Under the pieces are notes generated by a model, which was given only the letters and a program-made list of their open reading frames with translations, did no database searches and was not told the origin of the DNA. DNA of 64,000 bases from Psammoneis japonica. Lineage: Eukaryota. Positions 4,875 to 64,000 of this stretch are shown here, in pieces; the first letter of the stretch is position 1; each line of letters starts with the position of its first letter. The translations under genes and the position numbers were made by a program. The DNA is taken from assembly GCA_008632985.1 (NCBI GenBank), contig QPGO01000070.1, forward strand, positions 62,001 to 126,000. Reading direction: 5' to 3'.

Positions 4875-5937
4875 TTAGAGATCGAGAGCGAGAGCATCCA
4901 TGCTAGAGCATTCATTATATGTGTGATCCAGAAGCGGATCTGTTGCGCTTGTGTTTGGATTTGGACCCGTCTCAGTGTCTTTCTCGGTTGTTCGAACTTC
5001 AACGACCAGTTTCCACCGTTCCATGATGACTGTCAAGTCTACTTGTGGATGTGCCGCATGCACTTCTTCACAGACCTGTTTCACTCGTTCGGAGCAACTA
5101 GTCCGTTCGGCCTGGTGAAGAATGTGAAGAGATCGCAAAAGTACTATCGTATAAATCAGCACAGGGACATTGCATGACAACCAAATCCAAAAGTAGCGGT
5201 GACATTCCCGATTTGGATTTGGCACACATGGGAAGTAGGGAGATTCATAGATCGGAGTGACAGCCACATGGCTGAGCATGTTGCTTATGAACAATTTCAA
5301 GCAGAAAGCCCAAGTTTGTTGGCGCAGACTCTGAGAGCACACCATTGCTCCTTCAATATCTTGTAAAAAGCTCATCCAGGAGGTTTGACTCATTTTCAAG
5401 AAGGGAGGGACAAACTTGATTGCGCTCCACGGTAGGATTTTAACAATCGAAAACGACGGCGAGCCTTGACGAATTGAGAGATGGATCAACACGGAACCAT
5501 CACAATCACCTTCACTGGGCACAATATGTGCTGCTCGTCGTTGAAGAATGGTTTGAATGGCAACTACCAAAGCCAGTATCGCAAAATACCCCAACAGAAT
5601 CTGCCAAAAGACAGGGACGTCAAATATGGAGAAAAATGTCATCACTAGCGAAACGACAATAGCTCTTGTGCTGTTGAACCAAAACGTGAATTCCGGCATT
5701 CGACGGGGCTGCTCGTCGGTTGTTGACGCCGTCCTGGGATCATTGAGGGGACTCCAAAACCAAGCGCCTTGTGCCATCAACACAACTCCCAAAGCGTACG
5801 CAACAACGTAGAAGCCGCCATGAAGTACCCAAAAGACGCGTGCCACAAACATTCCAAGCAAAAGCAAGGAAAACATCCAACGCGCAGTCACATAATTGGC
5901 AGTCTTATCTTTGATGCATTGATGGCAACGGCTGACT
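4875..5937 (-). CDS. Rer1-like ER-retrieval receptor domain fused to an unassigned ~200-aa C-terminal domain; upstream exon not identified
   Basis: Rer1 hallmarks DK...VTARW, GFYVVAYALG, RRMPEFTFW, FSIFDVPVFWQIL. The frame stays open upstream of the GTG to a likely acceptor (ctcacacag) at ~5937. Confidence 0.75.
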
Positions 5938-18099: not shown

Positions 18100-21000
18100 T
18101 TGCAGCAGCAACAACTGCATGCTTGGCTGAATGGCAGCATCTCATTGTCTTCATGAACTGAAGTGATCATTCAGAGCCATGATCTTTTTGTTGTGTTCTT
18201 TGTTGTCGGCTGGGTGCAGCACATGCTGTGCAACACACAGCACGAGGAGGGCTGAGCCAACCGGAGTTTGTCATTTTTGCACTTGACAACAGCAAGCTGA
18301 GCAATGTTGTCAACTGATGTGACAGCAGCTTGAACAGAGGGAGGAGTTTTTTCTGCTGTCCCACAAAAAAGCTGGCGCACCTTTTCATCATTTTCGCACG
18401 TGCACTTTCTCCAGCAAAGCTGGCTGCTTTTTTCGATTGTTTTGCCACCAGCAGCAGATGCCTTTGAACTTCAGGTTGTTGAGGTGGGATGGTTGCTCTG
18501 CTTGCTTTGTGTCAGCAGCAGCAGCTGCTGCACTGCATCGCTGCAAAGATCACAGGCAGAGCAGCAGCGCAACAAGTGAGCTCAGCTTCTTGTGAGAGCT
18601 CTGAAAGCCCGCAAGAGAGTGCTGTGTGGCCCAAAATGGCACTGAGAGAACAGAGTTGGAAGGCACAAAAAAAGAGCTCCAGGGAGGATTGTTGAATGAA
18701 AGAATGGCCCCATTGCCCCAACAACTCTTGGGCTGCAAAGGCAGCTGGGTTTGTGCTTCTTTCTCTGGCTCTGCAGTCAAAGTTAGAGAGAGGCTCAGTT
18801 TGAGAAGCTAAAAGCTTGACAACAGGGGAAAACAAAGGGAGTGTGTCATTGGCAATGAGCAAGTTTTCTTGATCACAGCTGCTGGCTTGCTTCTCTGGCA
18901 GCACAACAAGAAGAGAAAGCATTGCTCAGGGTGCTCCTCCTGCTGCAAATGACTGTGCAAGTCTGGAGTTGAAATGCATTGAAAAGCTCAGATTTGGTGG
19001 GCTCTGGTTTTGTCAATCATTTGTGCTTGTGCATCATTTGGCTGTTTGTGTTTGAGGGGTTGAGAGGGGGGGGGGGGGCAGGAAACAACTGCATCTTTGC
19101 GAGCTCTGCATGCTTGCATGCTTCAAAATGTGAGTGCACAAAACTTTGTCAAATTTGAAAAATTGAAGGCAGGCACTCTCTCAACCATTCTTGGTGTGTT
19201 TGCAATTGCTTGCAACTGTGCATGTGAAATGCGTGAAGGGCAAAAAATGGCATGCTCTTGTTTGCAAAAGTTGCCCATGAGAGGCGAAAATCTACGAAGC
19301 AGTTGGTGGGTGTTGGAAACATTTTTTGCACATGGGGGACAAGGGTTCTGCCAGGTCTCTGATGTGGCTTGTGAAAGTCATTTTGTGGCCCCTTGTGCAC
19401 AACAAGATTGCTTGCCTGGCCACTCATTTGCCCACTTTCCTGATGGCCGCTCAGCTCTTGTTGAGAGCTCTGTGGCAGACACACCAGCAGCGCTTCTGCA
19501 CGTGACACCAGCGCGCTGCTGGTCTTCCCACTGGCAACACTTCACTGAGATTGGGTGGCTGTTGTGACACAGTTGCTCTCAGTGAGTTGTGCCTCCAGAA
19601 CTGCTGTGCACCTCTCATTTCAACAAAAATGTCCAAATGGCCAGCAGCACCTTGAGTCTGACCTCATTGCTGAATGTCCCCCCCCCCAGCTTGCAAGAGA
19701 AAGCGCAACAAGAAATGCCAAACAAGTGTGTCAACTGCCAAGTTCTTCTCCCTTGGCATCACCTTCCACAGACACAGCACACAAATGACATCATGAAAAG
19801 GCACAATCCCCAAAAATGACAACTCACGTTGTCATCCCCTCAAGTGCAACAGTGTCAACAGATGATCGCGCGAGAGGGACATGCCAGCATTGTGACTCCA
19901 AATGAGTCATCCCCCAACTGTCAGTCGCGAAGCTCAAGAATCCCCAAAGTTTTGGTGGCGGATTTCTTCATTCTCAACTTCCGCGTGAATTTGCGCAAAA
20001 TTGTGGTTGGCGATGTTCTTTGTCAAAAAGAATGGTGTTGAAGCTTGTTTTTTGTTTTTCTCAGAGAAGCACTCATTCAAACAGCGAGGACAGGACTGGC
20101 ACAACACACTGTGATGCTTTTTCTGGGTTGCCAGATGTCCTGTGTTGAGTTGTGCTCCTCGAGCGGTGCAAATTTTTGATCAGAGTCGATCGGATCAATT
20201 TTTCCACATTGACAGTTTTGTTCACTGAGCATTTTAGAGTCACAATTTTTGCTCTCATTTTTTTGTTCCTTTGCCAAGGAACTTGCTTCAATTGTTTTTG
20301 TGAGCTGCCTGGTCCATCATTGTGGAGTTCAGCTCCTCTTTCACAGAGGTGTTTCTGCTGCTGTGGTCACGCGACCGTGTGTGATTGCTGTCAGAGCATT
20401 GTATTTTTGGGTCTCTTTCAGAGCCACCCTTGCACTCTTTTGCTGGTTTGTTTTTAGAATGGCTTCAATCCATGACACAGGTGTTCTTTTTTCAAAGATG
20501 GCACCTTTTGTTCACTTTGGATTGTTCAGGTGCCATGCAGGAGACCATTTTTGGAACCAAACTTGGAGCCATTTTGGTTTTGAAGCTGACCTTGCCATCA
20601 GAGTCTGATTTGATGTGCGCTCTTGTCACAGGCATCATCAACAACCTCCAGACGACTCAAAACTCAATCAGCTCTCATCACAGGCACGTTCCAGCAATTC
20701 AACGTTTCGGACAGTCGACTGATGCCGCCATCCTTGCGGTGCGAGACATGGCTGACAGCTCAGTGCTTGGTTTCCCATTGGATTCAACTTAGAATTGATC
20801 GGAGGGTCATGTGGACACTCATCAATGACCTCTTGGGTCCAGCAGAGGCTTTCTTGCTGACTGCCAAGCTGCTCTGGTTTCTTCAGATCATCTCGAAAAT
20901 GACAACTCTGATTCTGAAGTGCATTTCCTCAGAAGACATGAGTTGAGAGACACTTGGAGTGCTTTTCAGCAATTCCTTCTTGCTCTTTGGACTTGAGGCT

Positions 21001-22400
21001 CATCGATTTGGTCTCTAAAAACTCTGCAACATCAACAGTCTCTCCTTGCATGGCAGGTGCATTTCTCGGATCTTGTCGACTCGAAACTTGACATTCCATC
21101 CAACTGTGACTTGGTGTAGATTTTTTGACAATGCAGCATGCTTGTGGAGTCTTTGATCCTGAGGTGCTTGGAGTGGGTTGTGTTGGAACAAACCCCCTTG
21201 ACAGACAGACAAAAAACAGTGTTCCATCTTGAGGCATTGCTCGGATTGCGGTTCTCTTCCACTCGGAAATCGACTCCAGCAGAACTGACACGATTTGTTC
21301 CTGTTTGTGGAAGAATTTGCAAAGGCACATTAGTTGAAATTTTCATTTTCTGTGTTTTTGCCTTCTGTGGTGTGCACACACAATGCACTGTGCTTGAAGT
21401 GTGAGCATGAACAAAAGCAGAACAAAGCACGAAAAGTGGAAATTGTGAGTGTAAATTTTGCTCTGTAATTTTTGGATTCTCCGAACAAGTTCTCAATGGC
21501 CCAAAGCTTTTGTGCTGCCGGAGGCATGTGAATGGCAGCAAACTTTTTTTCAGGATTGCCTCACAGACCCCAAGACCCACATGTTGGTGGAAAGCTCTCG
21601 ACGAGCAACGCGTTCCAGCTCTAGAGGTGGGACCTCGCACTGCTGCACTGTGACATCAACAGTTTTTTGGATCGCGTCGCATGTCGCGCACGCACATTTC
21701 TGTGTGTTGCATTCTACGAAATTGTTTCATGCTCCCTGTTTTGCGAAGCCAAAGGCTTTCTATTTTCAACATTCATGAGAATGAAAACACGCTGGGCACA
21801 TTCTTCAATGTCTGAAGAACACACCCGGGCAAACTGTTGATCATGTGCTCCAAGCATGCAGGAGGAGATGCGTTCATAAAATTGCCTCTTTTTCTGTTGG
21901 CGATCATGTGAATTTTCATTGCAGTGTAAATTTACTACAGAGCTCGCACGCAGAATTCTGCGGGCCCAATGTCACATGGAGTCCCACCCAGGACTGGAAC
22001 CCATCGAGCTGAACAAGGTCAAATGCATGTTGCATCGGTCGGAGTGAGCGGAAAGCAAGTGTTTGTCATTGAAAATTTGGCATTTATTTAAGAAAAAACA
22101 ATGGTCACATTTGCCTTTTTCCAATTGATTTTTGTGTTTGTGTTCAGTCATTGCTCGCATCATGAATTTGACATTTAATCCGGAGTTCCGAAATTTTGTT
22201 CAGGATTGCATGCCGCACAAATTGCTTGTGGGACACCTTGTTTCTATGCTTTGCTCTTACTCTGCAGCTCTTACAACTGAAGATGTCGAAAAAAGGCTTT
22301 CGTCAGTCGCTGCAACTGGGTGTGTTTTAGTGACTGACGAAAGCCGATTTTCGACAAGCATTTTTGGTGTCGAGATTTTTCAACGGCAAAAACAACTTCG
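18100..22400. other. TpA/CpG-depleted block 3 (decayed repeats)
   Basis: Same signature; CpG is partly retained from ~19830 onward. Confidence 0.88.
21607..22005. mobile_element. MITE family A, partially mutated copy, 4-bp TSD gagc
   Basis: Ends (a)acgcgttccag...ggtgggac / gtcccacccaggactggaacccatc match 46637-47026; gagc at 21603-21606 and 22006-22009. Confidence 0.85.
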
Positions 22401-37113: not shown

Positions 37114-38199
37114 CAAAAAGCAAACCTTAAATGAAAAAATATTCAAAAGCTGACCTCCATCGACAGATCTCAGAACAGTCCAGTGATTTCGTCTCAGTTT
37201 ACGAAACTACAGCTGCGGGTGGTGGGTGGTGACCGTCAATCACAATGTCAATGACATGAGTATTGATGTTCCTCACAAACCAGCTGCTGGCCATTGCCCC
37301 CCCTTACTAGAGAGACAGAAATGTAGCAGATATGAGCCATGCCAATCTGCTGCCAATTTCAACAATATCTTAAGAGTGTGTAGTGTGTAACCAGTGGGTG
37401 CTCTTCGTGGAATGTGAAGTAACTCTTCCCGGAGTTGGTAGCTATACAACACTTGAAAACTATAGAGTAGAGTGCGAGGGACTCATTCCAGAGACAAGCT
37501 CTGTAGGGCCAACTGCCGCATATGCCTATTCGTGCGTCAACTTTCCTCTAGAGTAGAACTTTGTATTACTTGGGCAATATTATAGTATGAGTCAGTCGGT
37601 ACAGGAATCCTGCCAATAAAAAGGGGGTTTGAAAATTTCCAGCATTGCTGCGGAGCGCAGACCCACAGCTGCATACTTGCTAAACCATGCCATTGCCATT
37701 CAGAGCATGCCTTTACCACCGATATGAATTCTTCGCCCGTGTTGGCAGAGCAGGACTGTGAGCAGCTCTTCTGGCTTTCTCTTTCTTGAGTGTACATTTG
37801 TGGACTACCCACTCTCATGATGACTTACATTTCGTGAATCGCAATCCACACTGCGACAATGGTGATCCTTGTCAACCACGGCGGCGGTTGTCCGCAGCTG
37901 GACCATCGGCAGCTCGTGGGTTTGCAATGTTTTCAGCATCTTCATCCATCGTCCGAGCCTCGATTTCGCCGGCCAGGGAATCTTCACCAGAACTCGACTC
38001 ACTGATGGGAACAGTTGAGCGCTTCCTGATTGAGTCGTGAATAGCGAATCATGACCGCGTCAATGTTGTCACCACCTATTTGAAAGGCATTCAATCGGCG
38101 AGCACGGTCGTTGTCGTGGTCTCCAACACCATCCAAGTCGAAAAGATAATCGACAGTGACACAGGAGAACCAAAAAGGTTTCCTTCGTTCGACTCTGCA

Positions 38200-39450
38200 C
38201 TTCGGCCCTGGCTGCTGTTGCTGCTGGCGTGACCTTGCTCCTTGCTTTGATCGCTGGTCCTCGTCTTCCCAATTCAAAGCCCCAAAGTGAACGTGCTTCG
38301 TGACAACAAATGACAGCGGCCTTTGGATCAGAAACTCCGTTTGGCGTTTGCGTTGTCTTGCCATTGTTTTGGGCTGACCGTGTCCCATGACACCGTGTGA
38401 TTCTCCTCTCTTGAGTCATCATGACTTCACGATTGCATCTGCAAGCAGCAGGCATCAGCAATTGCCTCCAATGATGTCATTGTTGGAGAACACCAGCTTC
38501 TTTTGCTGTCACAATCATTTGCAGCACAGACAAAACTTCGTGTCAGAAACACATGGTCTCAAATGCACCTTAGAACCATGCCTCCACATCACATTTTTCT
38601 CTGCCATGTGACAACAGCTCCTGGCCACACATGGGGGTTGTGGCAGGCTTGGTTGTTGTCAAGAGTGAAGAGAGCGCAACAATTTTGTGTTGCAAGCTGG
38701 AGCTGCTGAAACTCATCTTGTGGTGGAGGGCCGGTCAACCAAGTGACCAAGACCACAACAAAACACCACCAAAATGTGCCATGCACTTGTGGGCACAGCC
38801 CACATGTTGTGCACATCATCATCGCACCAGATGCCAGCAGAGGCCAAGGGTCGGCAACAAAAAACAACAGTGGAAAGTCAAGGCAGATTTTCTCTGTTTG
38901 CAGCAAAATGATGGCTGATTTGACAATTCTGGGATGGCACAGATCAGCCAATCAAGTCAAACCATGAGATCTAAAAAAGCCAAAAACACAGACAGGAGAG
39001 TGCAAAAACAGGAGCACACCACCACAAAATGGGAGAAAAATGGCGTTTTCTCAGCACACTCTGCTGCTGACATGTGCCTCAGGTTGCTGAAACTCTGACC
39101 TCACCCCATGCTGCTGATCATCTGTCAAGAACAACAAGGAGGGAACTCATGGCTGGCCTCATCATCTCTTGTCTGTCTGCACCACTCTGTCCTGCTTCAT
39201 GATGCTGCTGGTGTCCAAAAACCCTTTCTCCCCGGCAGCCTCTCCAGTTGTGCGTGGCACCACACCTCTCCATGTCATCATGGCTGCAAAGAGGGAAAGC
39301 TCACATGTGTCTCTGCTTGCCTTTTGTGGTGAGCTTGATTTTGCATGTGAAGAGAGCACTCGGAGTGCAGAGGGGAGGGGGGGCGTTGTGAAGGGCTTTG
39401 GAGCGTTGTTCGCCCCAACAAAAACTAACTCTTTCTCTCAGACATGAAGT
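38200..39450. other. TpA/CpG-depleted block 5
   Basis: Same signature, with CpG retained at the left margin. Confidence 0.85.
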
Positions 39451-45328: not shown

Positions 45329-45449
45329 CGCAGGCAGACGACAAACAGTGATGCACGGCGGATGAAGTCCATGAAGCTTGATCGTGACTACATTGCTGCA
45401 AACAGTTGCATTTTGCTCGGCGCAGCGATGACAAATAAACCCAAGTGCA

Positions 45450-47397
45450 TTCATCCGATTTGTCTCCTCCAATGTCTTCCGAAAGACGCGCTCTAGCCCT
45501 CTCCACCCTTGCTCCTTGCTGCACCTTTTCTCTCATCCAGGCGCCGTGCAACACGCAACCTCTAGAGAGAGTGTCATGCCAGCTCGCCTTGAGCTTGCCA
45601 TCTGCACCAGCACTGGGGATGCATTCACAATGACACAAGACTGCATGCTTTTGCATTGCCATTGGTCATGCATGCAGCAAAAGCATGAGCTCGGTGGTGC
45701 AGTGTGATGTGTCCCCTCAATTTTAGGATCCGACCCTTGGCACCCACTCATTTCTGTGAGACCACGTCAAAACAATGCAATGATGGTGCACTGTGCTGAA
45801 GCCCTGATGCATCCTTGGCTTTGTGAGGTGGGATCAGGCAGCAGATCTGTGATCATTGCAACAGGCAGGATCATCCTTGGGCTTGGACATGGATTGATGG
45901 CTTCCTGTGCTTTCTCATGGTTGCTGGACTGTTGGTGATCAGTGATTTGATTGTCTGCTGGGTCAAGCCACTGCCAGTGGTTTGTGGCATCTCTGCACAC
46001 AAGAGGAGGCAAGGGGGCACCTGGGGCAAAAGAAGAGGTCTCCACCTCTTCCTTTTGCCAAGAGTGAACAGTCCAGACTCTCCCAGCTGCGCTGCCAATC
46101 ATGCCCCAGACAACTGGAACAAGAATGTGGGTGGCTGTAAAGTGGGAAGAAAGGGTGCCAACAAAGTGACCAGAGGTGCCTGGGCACAAAAAAGTGGTTC
46201 AGACAAGGCATGCAGCATGCAGCAGGTTTTGTCAAAGCAACTGCAAAACTCAAGTGACCATGTTGTGCTCACAGGGGTGCCCTCTTTTGACTCTGTGCAT
46301 CAAGTCTGTCTGAAAAATGCCAATGTCACAAGCATCCCCAAGGCTCTGCCTCATGTTGTTTCACTCAGAACAGAACAGAATTAGAAGGGGTGCACTTTTC
46401 AGAAACTGCAATGGCAAAATGTGACACACCACAATTGAAAGCTGCTGAGCAAGATGACCCTCTGTGAGAAGCAAGTCAAGAGTGTCACAAATCCCCAAAA
46501 GCACACTGTGAATTTTTTGCCAAAAAGCATGTTGAGTGGAAGCAAGTGTGCAAAAATCTCAGACTCCTTTGGTGGCACAAGCAATGTGAAAGATGTGCCA
46601 ATGTCACAGAGCCAGCAGCCAACCACATGCACACAAGACGCGTTCCAGGTCTAGGTGGGACCTCGCACTACTGAACTGTGACATCGATAGTTTTTTGAGT
46701 CTCGTCGTATGTCGCGCACGTAGATTTCTACGTGATTTTTTCGATATTTTGTGTCATTTTACGGTACACTTATTGAGCGATCCGTCCAACAACTTTTGAC
46801 ATTTTTTGTTACAGCGCGATTCTACAATGTCTTAAGAATCGCGTAGGGCAGGCGAAGTTGCAAAAACGTCGAGTGGTAAGAGGCATAATTGTACCACAAA
46901 CTTGGCCGTTTATTTGATGTTGAAGATAAATATATCCATTAATTAAATTCTCGTACTACGGAGCTCGCACGTAGAATTCTACGGGCCCAATGTCACAAGG
47001 AGTCCCACCTAGGGCTGGAACGCGTCACAAGAGGATGGCCAGGCCAGCCAACAATTTTCAAGCTGCGAGAGCAAAGCCCAACAGCAGCAATCTTCAGCAA
47101 GCATGGGCAAAAGGGCTGGGATGAAACAATCTAGTCACAAGATGAGGCTCATGTGCAATTGTGTTGTGCCAGCTTGTGCACTGCAACCAAAGCCATTGGC
47201 AGAAAGCGAAAACAAGTCAGCACACCAAGCAGCATCTTTGCTGTGACAGTGTCACAAGCAAATCAAGACCCCTCTTGAAAAATGTGTCAACCCCACAGCG
47301 TTTGCTGTGGTGAGATGCATCAAAGTGCAGTGTGCATTTTTGATGCAAAATTGGAGCGGTCAGTTGAGTGTTGAGTCGAGCTGAGGCAGCGAGTGTG
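45450..47397. other. TpA/CpG-depleted block 6, interrupted by a pristine MITE
   Basis: Signature present on both sides of 46637-47026. Confidence 0.88.
46637..47026. mobile_element. MITE family A, pristine 390-bp copy, ~25-bp TIRs, 4-bp TSD acaa
   Basis: gacgcgttccaggtctaggtgggac ... gtcccacctagggctggaacgcgtc; acaa at 46633-46636 and 47027-47030; rich in TpA and CpG. Confidence 0.92.
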
Positions 47398-47756
47398 GAC
47401 GGGTTCCAGTCCTAGGTGGGACTCCGTTTGACATTGGGCCCGTAGAATTCTACGTGCGAGCTCCGTAGTACGAGAATTTAATTAATGGATATATTTATCT
47501 TCAACATCAAATAAACGGCCAAGTTTGTGGTACAATTATGCCTCTTGCCACTCGACGTTTTTGCAAATGCGCCTGCCCTACGCGATTCTCGAGACATTGT
47601 AGAATCGCGCGGCAACAAAAAATGTTAAAAGTTGTTGGACGGATCGCTCAATAAGTGTACCGTAAAAAGACACAAAATATCGAAAAAACACGTAGAAATC
47701 TACGTGCGCGACATACGACGTGATTCAAAAAACTGTCGATGTCACAGTTCTGTAGG

Positions 47757-47965
47757 TACGCGCCCTGTGCACTTATGGAGCCCGACGAGGAGGGTTCGGC
47801 CCCGCCGAACCCGACGAGAAGGGTCCAAGCAACGAGGTGGAGACCGACGAGGCGGGTTGTTAGCCCTCCTCGTCGTCCACACGACAAGCTGTGGGTCGTT
47901 CTCGCCATTGTGCAACCCAACGAGAAGGTCGTAACCGAGGCGCGTTGAGTGCACACGGGAGCGTA
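47757..47965. mobile_element. Small GC-rich MITE (family C) nested in MITE A
   Basis: TIRs tacgcgccctgtgcact / agtgcacacgggagcgta; internal ccgacgag repeats; flanks tgtagg / tatagg. Confidence 0.65.
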
Positions 47966-47969
47966 TATA

Positions 47970-49534
47970 GGGTCTCCCGCTGTGAGGATTTTATATATAT
48001 AATTCGACCGTTAACTACTTAGGGAGCGCTTTCATGTGCAAGACTGAAGTACCAAAGTATTGCAAAGAGTACTTTTGTACTGCAGGTTTACTTATTGGCG
48101 ACGGTTTTTGGTGCCGACTGGCAGTCGCGCAATCATTCAAAATTATAAACGGTATATATGATATTTAATTCAAACTTATGATATATATTATATTCATCTC
48201 AGCACCTAAAGCCGTTATTACGATCGAAATTCAAAAACGTTGGTGGGATTGATTCAAATCGACCACGTAGAATTATACATATTGGTATAGTTTAACGGCA
48301 GAATCCTTGTAGTCTACATAGAGACAGTAACGGTTCTACTTACAACCCTTCTACACGATTTTTATACTGACGTACATTTGTGTACATTTTGTACCGAGAA
48401 ATTTTGTTCGACTCCGAACGGTGCGCGGTCGAGTTGATGGCTCATAATTTTTCCGAGCGGCCGATCGACAACCACCGCTCCCTCCGACAATGGCGCTTTT
48501 GGCCGATTTGACCGGTACGACACCGCCTACCGACCCCTACCTTGCTTGCTAGTGTTGCAAACCATTGGGTCGTGCCATGTGAGTGAGCCGCGGCTCTAGA
48601 ATGGGTCAGAATGACTCAAAATGTGGTGAGTTCTGATTCTCGCGGAATCAAGTCTCGTTTTCCCCCGTTCTCGTTCGCAATGGCGCTCACCTTGAACCTC
48701 CTTGTCCCGCATCTTGATGTGTGGGACTCTGAGATGGGGACATCGAAGTCCATGGGTGTGCGCCGTCGCCGTCACCGTTTTTGGCTCCGTCACCGTTCCA
48801 CCATGGTGTGCTGCTTCTGCTCCGGTCCACGCCGTCCTGCCATGGCGCTGCCTCCGTTCTCCAGGCCACTGCCACGACTTTCATGGACTGGACGAGTCAC
48901 TCGATCCCAAGTGCCAACTTTCTGCCATTGCTCGTGCCGATCCACCACCTGCTTTTGTCGTCCTGCTCCGTGGAACCAGCAGACTCTCTTTCATCTGTCG
49001 TTCCTCCCGCCGTTGACGATCCAGGCACCCCAAGTTTTGACCCTGCTGGTGAGTTTCCATTCGTCGTTTGCTCGTTGTTGCTTTGCATTTGTAGAAAGCA
49101 TTCGCAGAAAAGTGTGTTCTCACCTCCTTGTGTTGTTCCATGTCACCGCAGATGTGGTCATTCTGCAGGCGCTGGTGCCATGCTTCTTTGTGCAAAAGTT
49201 TTTGTGCATGCCAATGTCTTCTTGCTTTGTTCTTTTTGTTGAAGACATGGCACTAACTCAAACAGATCTTTTCTCTCTTTTGCGCCCTTGCGGTGTTGTT
49301 GGATTGCTCTCCTTGCGTCTCTCTCCGGCACTTGCATCATTGTCGGTCTCTTCGCTCGTGCTTTGCTCGCGTCGTCTCTTCTCCACGCTCGTTTCCCTTA
49401 ATTTTTGTACGCACGTAATTTCCACACAAATGCCTCATGTGCAGAGTGCCAAAATGCTGCCAAATTGCACAGCAACGGCCGTCAACGGTTTTTAGAATTA
49501 CTTGGGCCCACCCACACTCGAGCAGTGGGAGTCC
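47970..49534. mobile_element. ~1.56-kb non-autonomous insertion (element B) nested in MITE A
   Basis: Imperfect TIRs gggtctcccgctg / cagtgggagtcc; bounded by tata and tgca; interrupts MITE A. Confidence 0.6.
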
Positions 49535-50232
49535 TGCAGTGCGAGGTCCCACCTTCCTAGACCTGGAGCTCGTCTGTGTTTTTGCTGTGGCTGCAGCCAT
49601 TGACACACACCAGCAGGTCATGGCTGGTGGTGGCATGGCACAAAGTTTGTGCTCAAACACACGTGCTCTATTGCCTTGCTCACCAATGCCAGTTTTGTGA
49701 CAATCCTTGAGTTTGTGTGCACTTGCTTTGGAAAAATTGTTGCCCCAACAACAACGCTGCGCACACCACACATCCGTTTCAGGGAACGAGATTGCATTTT
49801 TTCTTTGAGGTGTCTGTCTTCAAGCAAAAAAAGTTGAGTGGAGGACAACATGCACTCATCTGCACTGTCTGGTTGCTGGCAGAAATGGCATGGGCACTCC
49901 CTGCTGCTGGCACAGAAGTTTCAAGTCTTCAGTGGAGAAGTTGGTGTGCACACCTCAGATGAGATTCAGATGTGATTAAAAGGTTTAGTCACATGAGTCG
50001 ACGATTTGGTTACGTTCAAAATTCCAAAATCACACAAGTATGAGAAAAGGATGTGCTGTGCTGTTGTTGAGAGTTTAGATCTTTTTCCTTCGCCCATGGC
50101 ATCGCCGTCTTCTCTCACTTCTTCGTTGCTTCCTCTTATTACAAAGCGTATCCAACATAAACTTTACCATACGTAACAATATCAAGTAAGGAAGAAAAGC
50201 TTCCGCAAATCGCTCAAGTTTGAATACAGTAG

Positions 50233-50994
50233 ATGAAGAGTCTCGAGTACGAGTACACGAGCGTGAAGCCATCATCATCAAGCAATGATGGACCGCGTCA
50301 ATATCCTCGGAGAAGGCGTGTATTGATACAGCTCACTAGAAGGCAGCGCCAGCTCTTGTATGTGATTGGTTTGATCCTTGTCGTGTGCATCTTGGTGGTG
50401 ATTCAGAAGCGAAAAGGATCCTCTTCTTCTGCTTCACCCTCGTCGGCACAATCCAAAACCGCGGACAGCAAGAACGACGACAACAACATGGCAACAACAA
50501 CCAATGCTCCCACAGTTATTTCGCCTGCTACGCACAAGCCTGCAAAACCTACTCCGTCACCGAAACCAAAGCCAAAACCATCACAAAAACCGTTTGAATG
50601 CCAGACAGATCGGCTCGGACATGCGACACGATTGGAATCCGGTCATGCCATTTGCAACCACGAGTACATGTTTGGGCTGACCCAGGAGGGCGTATTTCAG
50701 TGGCAAAACACAATAACCAACGAAACCAAGATATTTTACAATGGTATCGCTGGAGACTATTTCGTCATGGATCCAGATGCGTCTTTTAATGTATTCCTTC
50801 GAAATGAAACACGGGTGTGGCGAGAGGAATGCAACAAAAAAGTCAAATTCTATTCCCAATGTCTATCCGGGCCAGTCCTGGACTGTCCCTATCTTCATTT
50901 ACACAAGGATGGAGTTGTTGTACTGAATTGGATTGATGGGGGGTGGAACGAGAGGAATATCAAAAAGGTTTACCCACAATTGTTTGGCAAATAA
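50233..50994 (+). CDS. Type II membrane protein with Pro/Lys stalk and bulb-type-lectin-like C-terminal domain; the intact member of a three-copy family
   Basis: 253-aa ORF with a single TM segment; RLESGHAIC..YMFGLTQEG..YFVMDPDASF..YLHLHKDGVVVL resembles a degenerate B-lectin repeat (inference). Confidence 0.8.
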   Translation: MKSLEYEYTSVKPSSSSNDGPRQYPRRRRVLIQLTRRQRQLLYVIGLILVVCILVVIQKRKGSSSSASPSSAQSKTADSKNDDNNMATTTNAPTVISPATHKPAKPTPSPKPKPKPSQKPFECQTDRLGHATRLESGHAICNHEYMFGLTQEGVFQWQNTITNETKIFYNGIAGDYFVMDPDASFNVFLRNETRVWREECNKKVKFYSQCLSGPVLDCPYLHLHKDGVVVLNWIDGGWNERNIKKVYPQLFGK

Positions 50995-51792: not shown

Positions 51793-52780
51793 CTACTCTT
51801 CGTATTGATAGATGTTCCAATTTGGATTTTGCGTGTAAACTTTCTCATCTTCGCCGTATGGTTTTGGTCCACAGCAACGACACCCCCAGTCGTACGAATA
51901 ACCACTCCACATGATTTCGATCCCTCTACAACTTCTATCTTTGCGAGCTGCATCGCCACACTCATCAGGAGTTTCGAACCTAGTTCCAAGGTTCTTATCC
52001 TGGAAATTGTCGCACCCGTACCCAGGTAAGCGCAGAAATGTGCTCGGACATGAGTTGCCAAAGGCCGTTGCCTCTTCATGTTGGAACGCGTCGCCGCTGG
52101 CACCTACGTTGTTGTTGTAGAAAACCTGGTAGCCACCGGAGTCCGAAATAGTGAACTCGTACTGTCCAGGGTCCATGCATTGCTTGTGAACGTACTCATG
52201 GTGTGCCTTTTCGTACTTTCCACCAGTGATCGTTTCAGCAGATTCATCGCATATGCTAGTGAGGGACCACGTGGTCTCTACCGGGAAAGAGTCAGTTTTG
52301 ATTCTTATTTCGATTTGCGCCTTGTCAGTAGGACAAACTTTCTCGGGCGGTACAGACATGGAAACACCAGCACCTCCTGTGTCCTCCCAGACCTCATAGT
52401 GCGGAGAATCTGGAAAAGCTTCTTGGTTCGTCATGGCTGCAGGCTTTTTGGCGCAACACATGCACTCCTACAAGACAAAGTAGACAACACCGACACAACA
52501 TTTTAGAATGCTCACCAACCGGACAAAAAGCTACCCAGTGACAGACATTGAGACGTACTGAGGATCTTGTTCTAGTGCTGTGTGCGTACATGATTTCTGT
52601 TCCTGTACAGTCGCGGTCAAGAGTCGAAGCTTCTCCACAAGATTGTGGGTTGCTGAACGACCTTCCCAAACTCTTGATTGCAATTGGAGAACATGATTGA
52701 GATCTGTACTTCCGTTTGAACTCGCCACGGGCTACCTCTAGACAAAGGAATAGGAACAAAATAGCGCGGTAATGACACAT
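51793..52780 (-). CDS. Secreted Cys-rich protein; exons 52780-52559 and 52467-51793
   Basis: Signal peptide; phase-0 GT-AG intron; two PAN/apple-like repeats (LGRSFSNPQSC...EIMY...CMCC and LGTRFETPDEC...EIMW...CRCC) flanking an IKTDSFPVETTW...YEFTISDS beta-domain. Confidence 0.8.
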
Positions 52781-55700
52781 AGTGGCACGTTGTACGATGC
52801 TTTGTGGTTGTGGTTGGCTCGCGTTTTTATGATGGTGGCTTCGCGTTGCAAACGACGGCGCGGCCGCTGGGCGGGGATAATTTTTTGTCATCTATGCCCC
52901 ACTCAGAAAGCAACGACCAATGACCATGGCATTTTCTCGCAACTTGAGGTTTCGTTGTTCCACACAGTGGCTGCTGCCTGCAGTTGGATGCACCTGGAAA
53001 GAGCAGATTGAGTTTTCATAAAGTCTCTGGGTTGTCAGTCACATTTCTGAAAAAGAGTGATGTTCTCTCTGTGTCCTTTGCAAGTTTTTGCATGCCGGTG
53101 TGTTTGAAAAACCTCGGCAGCGATGGTGAGCACCCAGCAGAGCTTGGAGCAGAAGCGGGAGCTCGCCCTTGGTGCAAGCTGCCGGCCAGAAAAATGAGAA
53201 AATGGGTGTGTTTGTGGAGGGCTGTTGAGCCAGAGCTGCCACCCAAAAAGCTTGGTGTGCCTCTCTTTGCCCATCAAACAAGCCTGAAAAGCAAGAGCAA
53301 ACTTGTTTCTGCAGAAAAACCTTGCGCTGCTGCTCTCACACACAGGCTGGGCCTGGGAACAAGGCACTTGCCAAAGAAAGAAGAGCCAGCCCTCACACTT
53401 GCACCTGCTTCCTCTTGCCAGGCTTTGACTTTTTCTCACCTGTTGCTCTTTTAAAAAGCTGGTGTGCTTTGCCAGGCAGGGTTGTGCCTCAGAGCACAGT
53501 GAGAGCCAATGATTCTTGGCGCCACCGCCTCAGCTGGGCTCTGCAACCTCAACAATGCCCCATGACACAGCTGCTGAGTGGCAGCAACAGCTGGCTCACC
53601 AGTGTGTTTGTGTGCAGAGCACAAAAAAGTGCACATCTTTGTTGCCACAGGTTGCCCCATTGTCGCTGGCTGCTTGCCAAGATCATTGTCATTTGTTCAC
53701 CACCCAGCACCTTTTTCTGTGTGCTGCCATTGCACAGCAACTCCAAGAGCTTGGCTGCCTGCAAGTGTCCTCATGCATGGCCTGCCATCTTGACTGCAAG
53801 AGGCACAGGTTCCCAGCCACCACTGCCTCAGCTGCTGGGCTGCAACAACCTCAACAACATGCAACAGCACACAGCTGCCAAGTTGCCACAACAATCAATG
53901 CAAGTTGACACATCCAATGCTTGAAACACACACAAGCACCACACACACTCATTCATTGCTGCTTTGCAGCAGCGGCCAGAAAATGAAGCACAATTTTTCA
54001 CACCTGACTCTGTCAACTTTGTCCAGCAGCAATTCTGTGCAAGCAAGCTGTTCAGCTGCTGCTGCTGCTGCACTGTCCAAAGTGTGGTGTGGTGCATGCC
54101 CACATTTTCAGAGAGCCAGTGGTGGAGCCAGCTGGCAACAAGAAAAAAATGGTGGAGTTGAAGCAAAAACTCACAGCTCATGAAGCAAGGCAACAACAAG
54201 GAGTCCATGCCCAAAATGGGGGCTTGCATGCCACAAACTGGGCAGAAGAATGTCTCCTTGTTGGAAGGTGATGTGCTTCAGCTCTGTCAGGTGAGACCTT
54301 GCACTGCTGGACTTTGATGTGAACTTTTTTGTCACACATTGCATGCATCATGTGCTCACACTGCTGCATGACTTTGGTGGCATTTTGCATCATTTTACAG
54401 TGCAGTTGCTGGGGGCTGTCTGTTCAACAACTTTTGACATCATTTTGCTTGCACTGCACCATTCTCAAACATGTCAAGAGTGGTGCAGAGCAGGCATTTT
54501 TTCAAAAAGCTGCAAGCAATGAGAGGCACAAGTGCACTGCAAACTTGGTTGTTGTTTGCATGCACATCCACTGACTGAAGTTTTTTGCACTGCAGAGCTT
54601 TTGCATGCAGAGTTCTGTGGGCCCATTTCACCTGCAGTGTGGGGCTGGAATGTGCCTGGCAGTGTCTCAGAAACACACAACTGAGCTGCCAGCTCTCATG
54701 TCCACACTCTAGAGACAAAACAAGAGAACAAAATTTCAAAATTGTTTTGAAAAACCAGAGAAGATGGAGCATGGCTGCAGAGCCAACAATGTCAAGTTCC
54801 TTGAGCACACCACAAAAGCAACAGGCAATGGCCCACCACCAGCAGCACAACAAGAGCTGAGTGGATTTTGTGTTGAAACTCATCAGCACCCACATCAAGA
54901 GGACATGTCAACCATTTTCTAATGGACTCTTTGTCCTTGACTGGGTGAAATTTGTGCAGCTTCAAGACAGTTTCACACACATCTTTTCTGTGTCCTTTGA
55001 AGAAACTGGCTGGACATGACCACCCACCAGCTGACAAAGAGACAGCAAGTTGTGGCACCCTCCTTACAACCCCAGATCTGGACAAAAAGTGCTCAGTCAT
55101 GCAGCATGTGGGGCAAGTCAGGCCAATTCTAGTGCACCTTTGCAAAGATTCAGAGCGAGCCTCTCTTTTTTTCTGCTGTTGATCACACCATTTCTTTTTG
55201 AGTGTGCTGTTGACCCACATCCAGGCAACAGAGTCAACAAGAGTTGACAAACACATTGGTGTCATAAAAACAACAGCACAGCTGACAATCTCAATCTGAG
55301 CATCAGTGGGAGAGCATCCAAAAGCAGGTCTCGTTCAGGAAATTCAGGCATGGACTTGCTGGGATCAACTTTCCAGCCTGTTGCACTCACCCTTGAAGAT
55401 GGTTGCTGCAGAACAAGCAGATTTGGTGCCAACCTCCTGCATGAGCACACAACAGCCTGCATCTGGGTTGGCAGAAAGGGCCGCACATTTGACGACACCT
55501 CAGCTTCTGCCAGCATCTGCGGAGCTAAATTGCTCACAAAGATTTGGCATCAAAACACATTGTTCAAACTCTTTCTTGATGCTCACTGAGGTTTGGCACC
55601 AAGCCACATTGTCTCAACTGTTTCTTTGTGAACTTGAGAAGCTTGCCCAACTTTGTGGCATCAGATTTGTGTCTGTGATGACAGAGTTGTGCAAACAGCC

Positions 55701-58404: not shown

Positions 58405-59250
58405 TCTTCTCTCACTTCTTCTCAGCCCTCTTGTGACAAGGTGTGCCCAACATCAATTTCACCACATGCAACAAACACCAAGCAAAGTGAAGAAAAAGAG
58501 CTTTTCTGAGTCTGAAGTTTGAACATGTGAAGAGTCTCAAGAAATTGTGGACTGGTGCACCAATGTTCTCCTCAGAGAAGGCATGCATTGGCACAATTTG
58601 CCAGTGTGTGGTTGGTTTCATCCTTGTCATGCATGCATTGTGATGGCAACTTAGAGGTGAAAAGCACCCTCTTCTTCTTTGCCCCAGTTGGCCTGATCCA
58701 ATGATGACAACATGGCAGCAACAACAACAACAACAACAACAACAACAACCAAAGCTCCCACACTCAGTTCACCTGCCATCATGCACAAGCCTGCAAGTTG
58801 CGCTGCACCAAAAACTGACCACAAAACAAAAATCTTTTAAATGCCAGACAGATCAACTTGGTCATGTGACACGATTGGAGAGCTTGGCTGCACTGTCAGT
58901 TTTGGCCACAAGCACATGTTTGGAGTCTCACCCAGGACAGCAAACTTCAGTGGCAAAACACACCAATGATGCAAAGGCATTTCACAATGGCACCATGGTG
59001 GGAGACTGTTTTGTCGTGGATCCAGATGCATCCTTTCATTCACATCTTCAGAGCAAAAGATGTGCACAGCAAGAAGAATGTTGCCAAGAAGTCAATCTTC
59101 ATTCTTGGTGTCCATCTGGGCCTGTCCTGGACTGCCCCTGTCTTCATCTGTGCAAGGATGGAGTTGTTTTAGGGCCTTCTGGATTGGATTGATGGGGGGT
59201 GGAATGCAAGGAACATCAAACAGGTTTTCCCACAATTGTTTGGCAAATGA
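58405..59250 (+). pseudogene. Decayed copy A of the 50233 lectin-like gene, including its upstream region
   Basis: Collinear with ~50110-50994; translated remnants FKCQTDQLGHVTRLES, GDCFVVDPDASF, SGPVLDCPCLHLCKDGVV. Confidence 0.93.
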
Positions 59251-61433
59251 AAGTTGCAGCATGGCATTGTGCATGCCTGTTGGCAAGCAACAATCACAAA
59301 CAAGTTGCAGCAACAAGACAAGCAAGATCAAACTGAGCTCAACCAAGAGCACCCCTTTTAATTTTTGGCAATTGTTGCAATGCAAGTTAAGGAAACTGCA
59401 ACATCCACAATGAACATGAAAAGTGCAGTCATTGTTGCCAGCCCAACAACTGCAATGCCATCTGCGACAACTGCTCCATGTGTGCAGAGAGCTGCAAGGA
59501 TTCCAGCACCAATTTTGTGGAGCTGACCCAACATCACCACCAATGGTGCACTTGCCAGTTTCGCCACACCCACAACAAAAAAAAAACACACACACACGCA
59601 AGGCTGAGAAAAAGCACACAAGCAAACTTTGTGCAAAATCCAACATCACACTGTGGCCCTCTTGCCCTGCAAGGAATTGCTTGATTTGTGCAGCCAACAA
59701 GTCTCACAACAAATGGGTTGTTTCCCATTCCACACAATTTGGGCCATGGTTTCCAAATGAATTGCACAAACTGGCAAAAACACCAAACAACACAACTGCT
59801 GCAGAAACACCATGGACAAGTTGTGCACTGTCACGATGGAACTTTGCCATGGGTGGCTTTGGTTTGTCCATTGACCCCATTGCAATTGGGTTGGTTGCCT
59901 TTTCATCCAGCTTGCAGGTGTGTTGTAATGTCAAATCTTGTGCCACTTGCAATTTCTCTTGTGCCATTTTTTCCATGCTTGCCAAAAGTTCCATGGCTTG
60001 TTGTTGTGCCACCTCTTCTGCCAAGACTGTCTTTTGGAGGGCAGCTGTTTTTTGAATTTTGGATGTGTTGTTGTTTTGTGACACAATTTCAACCTCTTGG
60101 CGACAACCCAAAATTAAGTTTTCTAAATTGCCCTGCTTGGCTTGGGCAGCCCACAAAACACTTGGGCCACCACGCAATTGGCCAAATTCTCCATCAAGTC
60201 TCAAGCACATTGCTTCATTTTGTCCATCATGATGACAGATGATTTCAGCACCATTGTGGCCCTTGAAAAGACACTGTTGTTGTCATCATGGTCATTTCAT
60301 TCATTGCATGAGAATGTTCTGGAAAACCTGCCATGTTTCTTGGATGTTGGGGCCACAGCAAAACTGACATTGTCGCACTCCTTTGCCTGGCTGCAGGAAA
60401 ATGTGCTGCCACCTCTGCAACCAGCACAGATGAAAAGATGAAAACATTGTGGTTTGGGGCTCAGATTTGCTGCACAGCAGCCCCACACCACTCTGTCTTG
60501 CTGCACAGAAGTTGAAAAACATGACAGACATGGTGGGATTGTCAGGTGAGGGCCAGAGTCTCTGCCCTGAAGAGCATCTCTGCTGCACAGATTTAACTCA
60601 AGAACAAAGATGGGTGCAAGAGACTCAGGCAGCTGTGCAAGAAAGTGCAAAAGAGCTTGCTGCAGCAATGTCATCCACCACTCAGATGTTGCCCACACTG
60701 TTCTGTGTCAGCAACTCAGCATCACAAACAATGAGGCCAGCGCTGTGTGCCTCAACTAAGAACGCGCCCCACAAACAGGAGAAAACCAAACCAGAGCACA
60801 CCAGCCTCTTCATCACAATGTTGGAAAAAGTCCCTGTCAAAAACAATCACAGCAACAGGCATCAAAGAGTGCAATGTGCCACTTTTGACACAAAGTTGGG
60901 GCCAGTTCAGGGAGTCCAGTCAAGCCACCCATGCCTCTCTTGCTTTGCCACATGATCAAAACTCTCAACCATTGATGCTGGGTCCAGTTGAGGCCAATGG
61001 TGGCATGTCACAAAAATGTTGCACAAGCTTTGTGCTCAAGCACACATGGTTTTTGACCTCGCTCACTGATGGCACCTTTGTGACACTTCTTGAGTTGGCA
61101 GCACTCAGTGCACTTGGGAGAATTTGTCCCTCCCTGTCTGAAAGCTCACAGCCCATTCTTTCAGGGAGGGGGCACTGCTCTGCTCATCACTGAGGCATCT
61201 GTTTTCAAGCAAAAGAAGTCAAGTGAACAATTTGCACTCATCTGCACCATCAACTGCCAGGGACTCAGGATGATGGCATTGTCGCCCCCCCCCCCACTCC
61301 TGACACAGAAGTTTCAAGTCTCAGTCAAGAAGTTGTTCTTCACAACTCAGATGAATGAAAGTTTCAGTTGCAGGAGTCAATGATTTGATGACATGCAACA
61401 TTCCAAAGTTCTGAAAATCCAAAATCAAAAAGG

Positions 61434-62345
61434 TTCTCTCACTTCTTTGTTGCTCCCTCCTCTTGTGACAAAGTGTGCCCAACATCAATTTTGCCATGTG
61501 CAGCAGCTGTCAAACAAGAAGAAAACCTTCCGTGAATTGCTCAAGTTTGAACATGTCACAAAGAGTCTCAAGTGTGAGTTCATGAGTGTGGCACCCCCTC
61601 ATCATCAAGCAATGACAAAGTGTGTCAGCATCCTTGGAGAAGATGCACATTGACGCAACTCACTTGAAGGCAATGCCAGCTCTTGCATGTCATTGGTTTG
61701 ATCCTTGTCATGTGCATCTTGGGGGTGCTTCAGAAGTGAAAAGCATCCTCCTTTTCTTCTGCTTCACCCTCATTGGCCCAGTCAAAAACTGCAGACAGCA
61801 ACAAAAATGAAAAAAAACATGGCAACAACAACAGAAACCAATGCTCCCACAGTCATTTTGCCTGCTGCACAGAAGCTTGCAAAACCCACTCTGTCACCAA
61901 AACCAAAACCCAAGCACCACAAAAACCACTTGAGTGCCAGACGGGCTGGCTTGGCCATGTGACACAAGCAATTGGAATCCTGTCACACCACTTGCAACCA
62001 CAAGCACATGTTTGGACTGACCCAGGATGGTGTGTCTTCCAGCAGGAAAGTGCAGTGGCCAATGAGACAAAAGAAGCGTTTTGCAGTGGTGCCACCAGAG
62101 ACTGTTTTGTCATGGATCCAGGTGCACACTTTGATGCATGTCCACGAAACAAAAAATGAGTGTGGGGAGAGAAGAAGGAAACCAAAAAGTTAAACTCTGT
62201 TCTCAGTGTCTGTCCGGGCTGGTTCTGGACTGTCCCCATTTTCATTTGCACAAGGGTGGTGGAGTTGTTGTGCTGATGAATTGGACTGATGGGGGGTGGA
62301 ACAAGAGGAGTGTCAAAAAGGTTTGCCCGCAATTGTTTGGCAAAC
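61434..62345 (+). pseudogene. Decayed copy B of the 50233 lectin-like gene
   Basis: Remnants CNHKHMFGLTQDG, DCFVMDP, KVKLCSQCLSGLVLDCPHFHLHKG, DGGWNKRSVKKVCPQLFGK; frameshifts. Confidence 0.93.
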
Positions 62346-64000
62346 AAAGGTTGCGCAGCACATTGTGTGTGCCTGCTGCAACATTGGCAAGCAACAAACA
62401 CAAAAAGCACAGCCATTGCTGTTGCCAACCCAACTGCAAGGCCATCCACAACAACTGCCCCATGTGGGGAGAGCCACAAGGATTCCATCACCAACTTTGT
62501 GGAGTTGATGACCCAACACCACCATCGGTGCCCCACTTGCCAGTTTCACAAAACACCTGTGTCACAAAATGCACACACACACACACACACATGCATCAAG
62601 GCTGAGAAAGTGCACACAAGCAAACTCCTGAGAAAAATCCAACACTGCACTGTGGCCTTCAGTCCACAAGGAATTGGTTGTTGTGTGCACAGTCAAGTCT
62701 GCCAACAAATGGGCTGTTTCCCAAACCTTGCCATCTGGCCCATGCTTTCCAAACAAATTGCACAAATTTGCAAAATCACCAAACACAACAACTGCTGCAA
62801 AAACACCAATGACAAGGTTTTGGTTTGTCCATTGATCCCACCACAATCAGGTTGGCACTGATTGCCATTTCATCTAATTTGCAGGCACAATGCAAAATGG
62901 AAACTTGCGCCACATGCAATTTCTACATTGCCATTTTTCCACAATTGCCACCCAACCCCAACACTTGGCCTGGGCTCCCATGTGATTGTCTGATTTCTCC
63001 ATCAAATCTTGAGCACATCATTTTGTTTTATCTTTCATGACAGATGATTGCAGCGCCGTTGTGGCCCTTGAAAAGACATCATCCTTGTTGCCGTTGTTGT
63101 GGTCATTTCACAAAAATGTTCTAGAAAACCTGCCACATTTCTTGAAGATTGAGGCCAGAGCAAAACTGGCATTGTCACATTCCTTTGCATCATCATGAGA
63201 AAATGCACTGCCACCTCGCTCCATGATTGCAAGGAAAAAGATGAAACCATTGTGAGTCAGATGCACCGTGCAGGGGCCACCCTGCTCTCTTTTTCTGCAC
63301 AGAAGTTGAACAACATGATGCACCTTGGGATTGTCAGCTGAGGAGCATGACAAAAGTCTCTGTCCTGAAGTGCATTTCTGGACCCACTGCATGAGCCCAA
63401 TGCAAGAAAAGCAAAGGTGGTTGCAAGATGCTTCATTGTGCAAGAAGGTGCTGCAGCCAGAAAGAGCTTGCGCTGTGGCAACATTGTCGGCTGCTCAGAT
63501 CTTGCCAACATGTTGCTGCCTCAGCAATTGAGCAATGCAAATGACAAGGCAAAGTGCCACAGTTTCCACAACCAAGAAAGTGCCCCCCACACAGGAGAGG
63601 AAACCAAACCAGAGCACACCAGCCTCTTCATCACAACATTGGAAAAAAAAGACCTTCTTCATGAAAAACATGGCAAGATGTGTCAAAGCACAATGTGCCA
63701 CTTTTGACATGAAATCAGGCTGGTTCATGGAGTCTGGTCAAGCCACGCATGCCACTCTTTCTTTGCCACATGATGAAAATTGTCAGCCATCGATGCTGGG
63801 GTGGGGCCAGTTTTGAGGCCGCTCTTGGTGGCGCACTGCAAAGTTGTCGCACAAAGTTGGTGCTCAAGCACACACACTTCTTGACCTCACTCACTGACAG
63901 CACCTTTGTGGCACTTCTTGAGTTGGCACTGTGCTGCATGCTTTGGGCAACTTTGGGAGAAAAAAATTGTTGCCCCCCGTCCGCAAGCTCAGAGCCCACT

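Follow-up and report, generated by a model that had tools for sequence, protein, structure and literature searches.

Fungal repeat-induced point mutation (RIP), which converts CpA to TpA, is a region-limited and dinucleotide-specific transition hypermutation of repeats. A closer case is that of Bigelowiella natans, where integrated DNA of nucleocytoplasmic large DNA viruses (NCLDV), as well as of virophages, undergoes TpA hypermutation (Mettrop et al., bioRxiv 10.64898/2026.01.13.699255). In that study, over 3,132 generations the viral inserts (Rho TpA 0.45) showed almost no G:C>A:T changes, the TpA rate was ~6e-7 per site per generation, and the authors proposed an ADAT-type deamination with a role in defence, by an enzyme that was not identified. 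In diatoms, transposable elements form CG-methylated islands with H3K9me/H3K27me3 that depend on DNMT5 (Hoguin et al., 2023, PMC9998398), and there is general support for 5-methylcytosine (5mC) in heterochromatin (PMC12344493). TadA-derived editors, for their part, favour TA and TAC, as reported for ABE7.10 (PMC8065034). Here we describe a window (the whole stretch of DNA analysed) of 64,000 nt from the diatom Psammoneis japonica, corresponding to positions 62001–126000 of contig 70 (G000:C70) in a 91.4-Mb assembly of 597 contigs. It contains a copy of a non-autonomous 1.79-kb repeat, element B (about 47750–49534), in which the loss of TpA precedes the loss of CpG and needs no CpG deamination, although the two losses share their tracts. 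Among known systems, the TpA hypermutation of B. natans comes nearest.

Across the window, gene blocks with an observed/expected ratio (o/e) of 0.55 for TpA and 1.01 for CpG alternate with blocks nearly devoid of both dinucleotides, where TpG and CpA are raised. In the core zone of element B (48610–49080, 471 nt) we counted no TpA, where base composition would predict 19.5 (Poisson p 2.3e-5 relative to the gene-block rate), together with 35 CpG (o/e 0.95), whereas positions 47970–48560 hold 54 TpA (o/e 1.10). The minimum among 525 overlapping gene-block windows of 471 nt is 7 TpA, rising to 9 in those matched for GC content (GC ≥ 0.52, n = 22). These counts confirm a preliminary description of this DNA, which had seen a TpA-free, CpG-dense zone beside a left part full of TpA. 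Four further margins had been listed there as similar: 38150–38400 is indeed so (0 TpA, CpG o/e 0.85, p 7e-4), while 481–1250 (TpA o/e 0.11, CpG o/e 0.68) and 19830–21000 (TpA o/e 0.05, CpG o/e 0.47) are TpA-poor but have already lost part of their CpG, and 45330–45560, with 3 TpA, is not significant by itself (p 0.08).

The direction of change becomes evident when the copies of element B are compared. The right part of the element used as query gave at least 41 matches, and 30 copies were fetched; L003 and L025 nearly duplicate L002 and L024 and were dropped, so that 28 remained. In the intact copies L002, L004, L009 and L013 the core zone carries 9–13 TpA and 33–36 CpG. The preliminary description had named, as what would speak against it, a low TpA accounted for by GC content or codon usage alone together with identical sequence in the other copies; the copies do differ in this zone, and intact copies and GC-matched windows alike hold at least nine TpA. 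With respect to L002, all ten TpA of the core zone have changed (five to TG, five to CA) and 30 of 33 CpG are kept. These CpG were not created by double conversion of TpA, a possibility ruled out by the comparison (0/34). Over the whole element, the window copy and L002 show 79 differences, including 31 TpA>TpG/CpA changes, every one at or to the right of 48558, and CpG changes whose losses (6) and reverse changes (7) even out. The right segment (48558–49534) is therefore a converted one in which most CpG is retained, and the left segment (47750–48545, with an AT-rich core at 47961–48400) is unconverted, having kept 53/54 TpA and 47/50 CpG over 47860–48545; it is also intact in several other copies with converted flanks. 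The contrast between left and right is partly inherited, since intact L002 itself has 51 TpA in 47961–48400 (37% GC) and 13 in 48546–49080 (54% GC), but mutation accounts for the drop from 9–13 to none in the core zone. Both TG and CA were found at 97 of the 107 TpA-type sites among the 28 copies (749 TG, 714 CA and only 10 CG cells), and because TG and CA differ from each other at two positions, TpA has to be ancestral and the copies must have mutated individually.

Other sequences of the window tell of the same direction. A second repeat family, at a block margin (19950–21520), retains 9 TpA and 36 CpG against 89 TpA and 64–74 CpG in the most intact copies, with both outcomes at 65/94 sites when 13 other copies are included. 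Host genes are affected as well once duplicated. Taking as unmutated reference the intact gene at 50233–50994 (plus strand), its decayed duplicate at 58604–59314 (L058, plus strand) is left with 1/22 TpA and 1/31 CpG, and the one at 61434–62352 (L057, plus strand) with 0/37 TpA and 3/43 CpG, the end state of both processes, while a duplicate outside the block (L056, 92% identical) has kept 33/38 TpA.

For the comparison of speeds we kept 93 of the 107 sites, those with TpA in intact copies, and tracts were called in each copy with a two-state model; 23 copies formed the young set, L024 and L027–L030 being set aside. In these young copies 923/1138 TpA cells are converted inside tracts and 27/765 outside, a contrast that is partly built in, as tracts were defined from the TpA cells. 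CpG loss took no part in the calling and is nevertheless about sixfold higher inside (220/1376, 16%) than outside (22/808, 2.7%), with private losses alone giving 118/1274 and 10/796, respectively. The ratio of log survival between TpA and CpG is 9.7 (bootstrap 7.7–12.2, 19 copies); since resistant contexts saturate, this is probably an underestimate. More CpG is lost inside tracts in 8 of 11 mosaic copies, and in the window copy the tract has 32/39 TpA converted and 7/57 CpG lost, against 0/49 CpG outside it (p 0.014). In the four old copies, 250/280 TpA are changed and 185/334 CpG lost. Two further repeat families agree, although some of their sites were classed by mixed TG/CA alone: family 3 (8 copies) has changed 572/719 TpA and 93/641 CpG, and family 4 (7 copies) 162/169 TpA and 100/284 CpG. 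On a larger scale, the window plus 18 hand-picked 10-kb stretches comprise 41,162 nt of TpA-low, CpG-normal DNA, 60,257 nt in which both are low, and just 1,213 nt that are TpA-normal and CpG-low. The earlier proposal that TpA loss is no by-product of completed 5mC deamination is thus supported, TpA being lost roughly ten times faster; the idea that both processes are separable stands for speed but not for place, given that they share their tracts.

Tract borders can fall inside an element, as had been suggested before. Among seven copies with an intact left and a converted right part, the change of state lies within 48516–48558 in six (L001, L006, L010, L016, L020, and L026), a recurrence with p ~2e-5 allowing for the choice of interval, in a post hoc calculation that assumes independence. 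These six agree in their TG/CA outcomes at 44–72% of sites, no better than the others (median 58% over all 221 pairs). The on/off pattern varies from copy to copy: 13 copies are converted throughout, L016 and L020 keep an intact left segment between converted flanks, and in L010 the tract is internal, bordered left and right by normal DNA, which indicates that tracts can begin within the element. The state of the right end follows that of the right flank (17 converted and 8 intact copies, p 2e-4, omitting L010, L026, and L030, which have no true right flank), and the terminus of family 3 is intact in exactly the four of eight copies with normal flanks. Age alone is not decisive, for a copy of the smaller element A (copy 2, see below) is older than the insertion of element B and yet its main part is unconverted. 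The left segment of element B, which is AT-rich, would seem to be often protected. The idea that flanking DNA travels along with element B, or that the element induces conversion to its left, found no support; 14 left flanks are mutually non-homologous except for element-A-like pieces, and both of those tested belong to the ends of other repeat families. An orientation bias was noticed among copies with an intact right end (left flanks L106–L112), 7/8 of which have TpA-free DNA on the left and normal DNA on the right; in the two tested, another repeat family ends exactly where element B starts.

The mutational signature is narrow. Inside tracts, A>G affects 81% of TpA cells compared to 0.9–1.4% for AA, CA, and GA, contexts in which it is still ~2–3-fold raised over the outside (e.g., AA 22/2578 vs. 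5/1566), though former TpA or CpG sites may be concealed in the CA class. Relative to TAA, rates by the base 3' of the A are 2.6 for TAC, 1.2 for TAG, and 3.1 for TAT. Sites with T-A-Y on both strands are converted in 406/423 cases and those with it on neither strand in 72/117, and at asymmetric sites the TAY strand is hit more often (299 vs. 138). Across 87 kb of blocks 365 TpA survive, with an excess of TTAA, CTAA/TTAG, and CTAG. No overall strand bias was found (749 TG vs. 714 CA; 17:15 in the window copy; p < 0.05 in 2/24 copies), by which transcription-linked damage of one strand was rejected. Outcomes at adjacent TATA sites are coupled on the same strand (122/174, z 6.3), and beyond 2 nt coupling is absent or marginal (|z| up to 2.3), so long processive bursts on one strand were rejected too. 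Conversion increases with distance from CpG (rho +0.23, p 0.023, 93 sites). Outside the CpG context C>T is not raised in tracts (23/5871 vs. 11/3165), so that CpG>TpG/CpA is elevated in repeats and other C>T is not, the pattern proper to methyl-CpG decay. Direction, rate order, shared tracts, motif, action on both strands, borders set per copy, and the effect on host-gene duplicates together make up a picture of which we are highly confident.

How does this compare to the systems mentioned at the outset? As in B. natans, TpA goes to TpG or CpA on both strands, unevenly and within confined regions, A:T>G:C is limited to TpA, and mobile DNA is hit (here four repeat families) while genes are spared, dead duplicates of host genes being hit too. 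Unlike the unsaturated viral inserts of that rhizarian, this is a diatom in which transposons and host-gene duplicates have suffered a near-complete loss, and G:C>A:T, unraised there, is raised here in the form of CpG loss, although the time scales differ greatly from those of a mutation-accumulation experiment. The accessible text on B. natans reports neither tracts in common with a slower decay of CpG, nor a preference for a 3' pyrimidine, nor borders within elements. RIP is likewise region-limited and dinucleotide-specific, but it is C:G>T:A and makes TpA, and shows long one-strand runs that we do not see; nor does homology seem to be a trigger, as the gene at 50233–50994 and its 92%-identical duplicate are both intact, and so are L002, L004, and L013 in a family of more than 30 copies. 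DNMT5 methylation followed by methyl-CpG decay accounts for the slow CpG clock and the island pattern, but CG methylation makes no TpA changes, and the word deamination is absent from the main text of PMC9998398. The 5'-T and 3'-pyrimidine context is that of TadA/ADAT-type enzymes (PMC8065034), and a natural ADAT2/3 can deaminate A in DNA (PMC8065034, PMC10354150); ABE7.10, however, prefers TA over GA ~3-fold and the diatom process ~100-fold. Our literature search, which did not cover most subscription journals, found no report of TpA hypermutation in a diatom.

We consider it fairly probable that the locus reflects a two-clock decay of silenced DNA, with an adenine editing targeted by chromatin acting beside methyl-CpG decay, and to the same degree that the core zone represents an intermediate stage of it. 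Once a stretch enters a silent domain, two mutation processes would act on it. The fast one, preferring 5'-T-A-Y-3' and working on both strands, would convert TpA to TpG or CpA site by site across many generations and with early near-saturation; the slow one would be the ordinary deamination of methylated CpG, taking about ten times longer. Young tracts would then be TpA-free and CpG-rich, and old tracts would lack both. Local chromatin would set the extent of the tract in each copy, which may start inside the element, follow the state of the flank, and often halt on reaching element B's AT-rich left segment, possibly a protected, promoter-like or nucleosome-poor island acting as a barrier. 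Judging from sequence, the tracts may well be methylated heterochromatin of the DNMT5 type. Tudor, DNMT, and SNF2 matches lie in order on one strand at G000:C76, which would fit DNMT5b as described in PMC9998398. With somewhat better than even confidence, we would ascribe the lesion itself to a TadA/ADAT-type enzyme that is drawn to such chromatin and deaminates adenine, giving hypoxanthine, and the process may serve genome defence. Endonuclease V is present in the genome, and a search for the AAG/MPG glycosylase (PF02245) gave no match, which does not show its absence. Only tentatively do we suggest that diatoms and rhizarians share a dedicated natural DNA adenine editor with T-A-Y specificity for either strand, which would be recruited to chromatin soon after its silencing and would remove transposons and stray copies of genes at about ten times the pace of methyl-CpG decay.

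Several observations weigh against this interpretation. CpG loss is not higher inside tracts in L005 (2/75 vs. 1/32), L018 (0/23 vs. 4/73), or L024 (3/43 vs. 5/46), and its correlation with the transversion distance that separates a copy from the nearest other one is not significant (rho 0.24, p 0.27), so the reading by age has weak backing; besides, the cells in all these counts are not independent, because the copies are related. A dedicated DNA deaminase was not found with PF00383 (9 matches), PF14437 (5), or PF02137 (4), in searches that left aside AID/APOBEC-like, toxin-type, and TET/JBP families. The deaminase matches examined read as housekeeping (a TadA-like protein, an ADAT2-like one at G000:C26, two A_deamin loci, and metabolic enzymes); the TadA-like protein retains the RNA-type Asp, and the Asn of the ADAT2-like protein is a residue widespread in eukaryotic ADAT2. 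Amphioxus ADAT2 is reported to favour GAA and hairpin loops rather than TA. In a search for a motif shared by the protected segments, just one 8-mer was common to three of them, judged to be at chance level without a formal test.

Two alternatives keep a minor but real share of the probability, each standing at perhaps one chance in several. In one, the T of TpA would be modified in silent chromatin, for instance oxidised to 5-formyluracil, which mispairs with G, and read as C. TpA being palindromic, A>G on one strand is T>C on the other, hence all our counts fit T>C in R-T-A equally well and the naming of adenine is our interpretation; that no dedicated adenine deaminase was found also speaks for it. 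The T-A-Y preference resembling TadA-type enzymes (PMC8065034) and the preference of the B. natans authors for deamination (10.64898/2026.01.13.699255) go the other way, though neither tests between the two lesions. In the other, put at the same modest level, the TpA process would be independent of methylation and physically spread ahead of it, with methylation and CpG decay arriving later. In its favour, the TpA-low edge lies outside the CpG-low edge at 24/28 edges, by a median of 130 nt against 2 nt for simulated coincident edges; L018 has converted 28/45 TpA with no CpG loss (0/23) and L005 44/54 with 2/75; and in the large region of B. natans just 1/211 mutations was other than A:T>G:C (10.64898/2026.01.13.699255). 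Yet CpG loss is already ~6-fold up in young tracts, and a tenfold rate difference alone would yield both the edge offset and the zero counts, for any exposure gradient puts the edge of the faster process further out. The preliminary description had offered faster or spreading ahead; faster holds, and spreading ahead is indistinguishable from it by such edges. Less likely still, at about half that level, is a by-product of the repair of deaminated 5mC, in which error-prone synthesis (polymerase eta/iota-like) would restore CpG and convert nearby TpA. It would account for the shared tracts, the retained CpG, the use of both strands, and the coupling at TATA, but conversion rises away from CpG and coupling practically vanishes beyond 2 nt. 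Polymerase eta, moreover, makes A>G at TA during repair synthesis within a WA motif, hitting AA comparably, whereas here AA is nearly untouched (0.9%, against 81% for TA) and saturation is far higher.

The remaining explanations fare worse. Mosaics made by gene conversion or recombination between TpA-rich and old TpA-poor master copies we regard as improbable. The recurrent border is what they would produce, and it is formally possible that intact donors replaced the left part again and again, but the disagreement of converted copies over TG and CA at the same sites means that there was no common TpA-poor donor. Ordinary composition or codon usage, by which a GC-rich or coding zone never had TpA, is refuted by the comparison of copies and retains a negligible probability: intact copies are indeed poorer in TpA on the right than on the left, and a 302-aa frame spans the zone, but those copies hold 9–13 TpA there against none in the window copy, GC-matched gene windows hold at least 9, and the frame (48587–49495) has no Pfam match and shifts between copies. 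Equally negligible is the reverse, RIP-like direction, with CpA/TpG>TpA in the TpA-rich copies. RIP does target repeats, and the genome is rich in C5-methyltransferase matches (27), but TpA-rich copies have their TpA at common sites, where the poor ones divide between TG and CA, a division that at 97/107 sites refutes it, and TpA is lost in decayed duplicates of an intact gene. An artefact of base calling or assembly at modified bases is no more credible. Contigs assembled separately from run X1 match 49511–49870 with no differences and 52276–54000 with seven substitutions; no difference is listed within 48560–49500, though several copies pile up there. In favour of an artefact, run X1 perhaps derives from the assembled sample itself, and a comparison made on contigs cannot show rare variants. 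Five of the seven strain or allele differences (in 53041–53798) are CpG transitions and none restores TpA, as expected if the slow clock alone still runs in exhausted DNA.

Element B itself had been thought to start at 47970, which we correct to about 47750. No terminal inverted repeats or target duplication were seen; its left end is preceded by a GTNC tetranucleotide and its right end reads GGGAGTCC, the ends are asymmetric, with a strong predicted hairpin region near the left one, and it occurs head-to-tail at one locus (L011/L019, G000:C193:8429–11314). Such ends would recall HUH (IS200/IS605-like, replitron-like) or recombinase elements. Phage searches gave no match and a separate homologue search one weak homologue, both uninformative. 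The insertion lies in the end of a 390-nt copy of element A, a MITE-like element whose copy 1 (46637–47026, plus strand, 25-nt terminal inverted repeats, flanks ACAA/ACAA) is unconverted, with 28 TpA and 29 CpG. The main part of copy 2 (47398–47749, minus strand) is unconverted with 23 TpA, and its end displaced by element B (49535–49575, minus strand), on the converted side, has 1 TpA remaining; the flanks of this copy are TGTG/TGTG. Both copies sit in older DNA devoid of TpA and CpG, namely 47027–47397 inside the unconverted island (1 TpA, 6 CpG) and the right flank at 49576–49976 (1 TpA, 5 CpG). Besides these two intact copies with 4-nt flanking duplications, decayed relatives lie at 21608–22005 and 54289–54562, and the motif CACGTAGAA is repeated in element A and found once in the left segment of element B. 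The window also contains internal duplications, 3223–3822 with 5002–5583 (a TpA/CpG-free block paired with part of a Rer1-like gene) and 60163–61100 with 62971–63928. Elsewhere in the genome, a frame containing a chromodomain is found immediately upstream of a co-oriented C5-methyltransferase frame (L097, G000:C34:43385–45776) and may be of the DNMT4 type with chromodomain. Repeated C5-methyltransferase genes (L036, L037, L038, L042, L092, and L093, on G000:C297 and C301) are found in many kb of TpA-free, CpG-rich DNA, with an exonuclease/endonuclease/phosphatase frame in the same kind of DNA at C301; this might represent a young mobile or virus-like element that has been silenced. One frame at G000:C79:87318–88790 (L049, minus strand), probably metabolic, fuses a guanine-deaminase-like domain with a DIOX_N/2OG-Fe(II) dioxygenase. 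Full-length silicon-transporter genes, the mark of a diatom, are present (24 matches, best 697 bits), and a 1511-aa frame at G000:C38:226311–230342 has three such domains in tandem.

What is new at this locus is the rate order of TpA and CpG loss and the recurrent border within an element. This type of mutation was first reported in 2026 from one unrelated alga, and the present locus relates the process to DNA methylation. Acting in the same territory, tenfold faster, and not arising from CpG deamination, the mechanism is narrowed to something recruited by silent chromatin, and the border at 48516–48558 shared by six copies provides a sharp site for maps of methylation, histones, and accessibility. 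Repeat ages and GC content are distorted in this lineage. The two decays amount to a two-step clock for the time of silencing and, if this is true, the TpA/CpG ratio would date the silencing of a stretch, and some elements would carry barrier segments against the TpA process, such as the left 800 nt of element B. If real, a DNA adenine deaminase that occurs in nature and strongly selects T-A-Y would represent a novel type of genome-defence enzyme and would also interest those who work on base editing.
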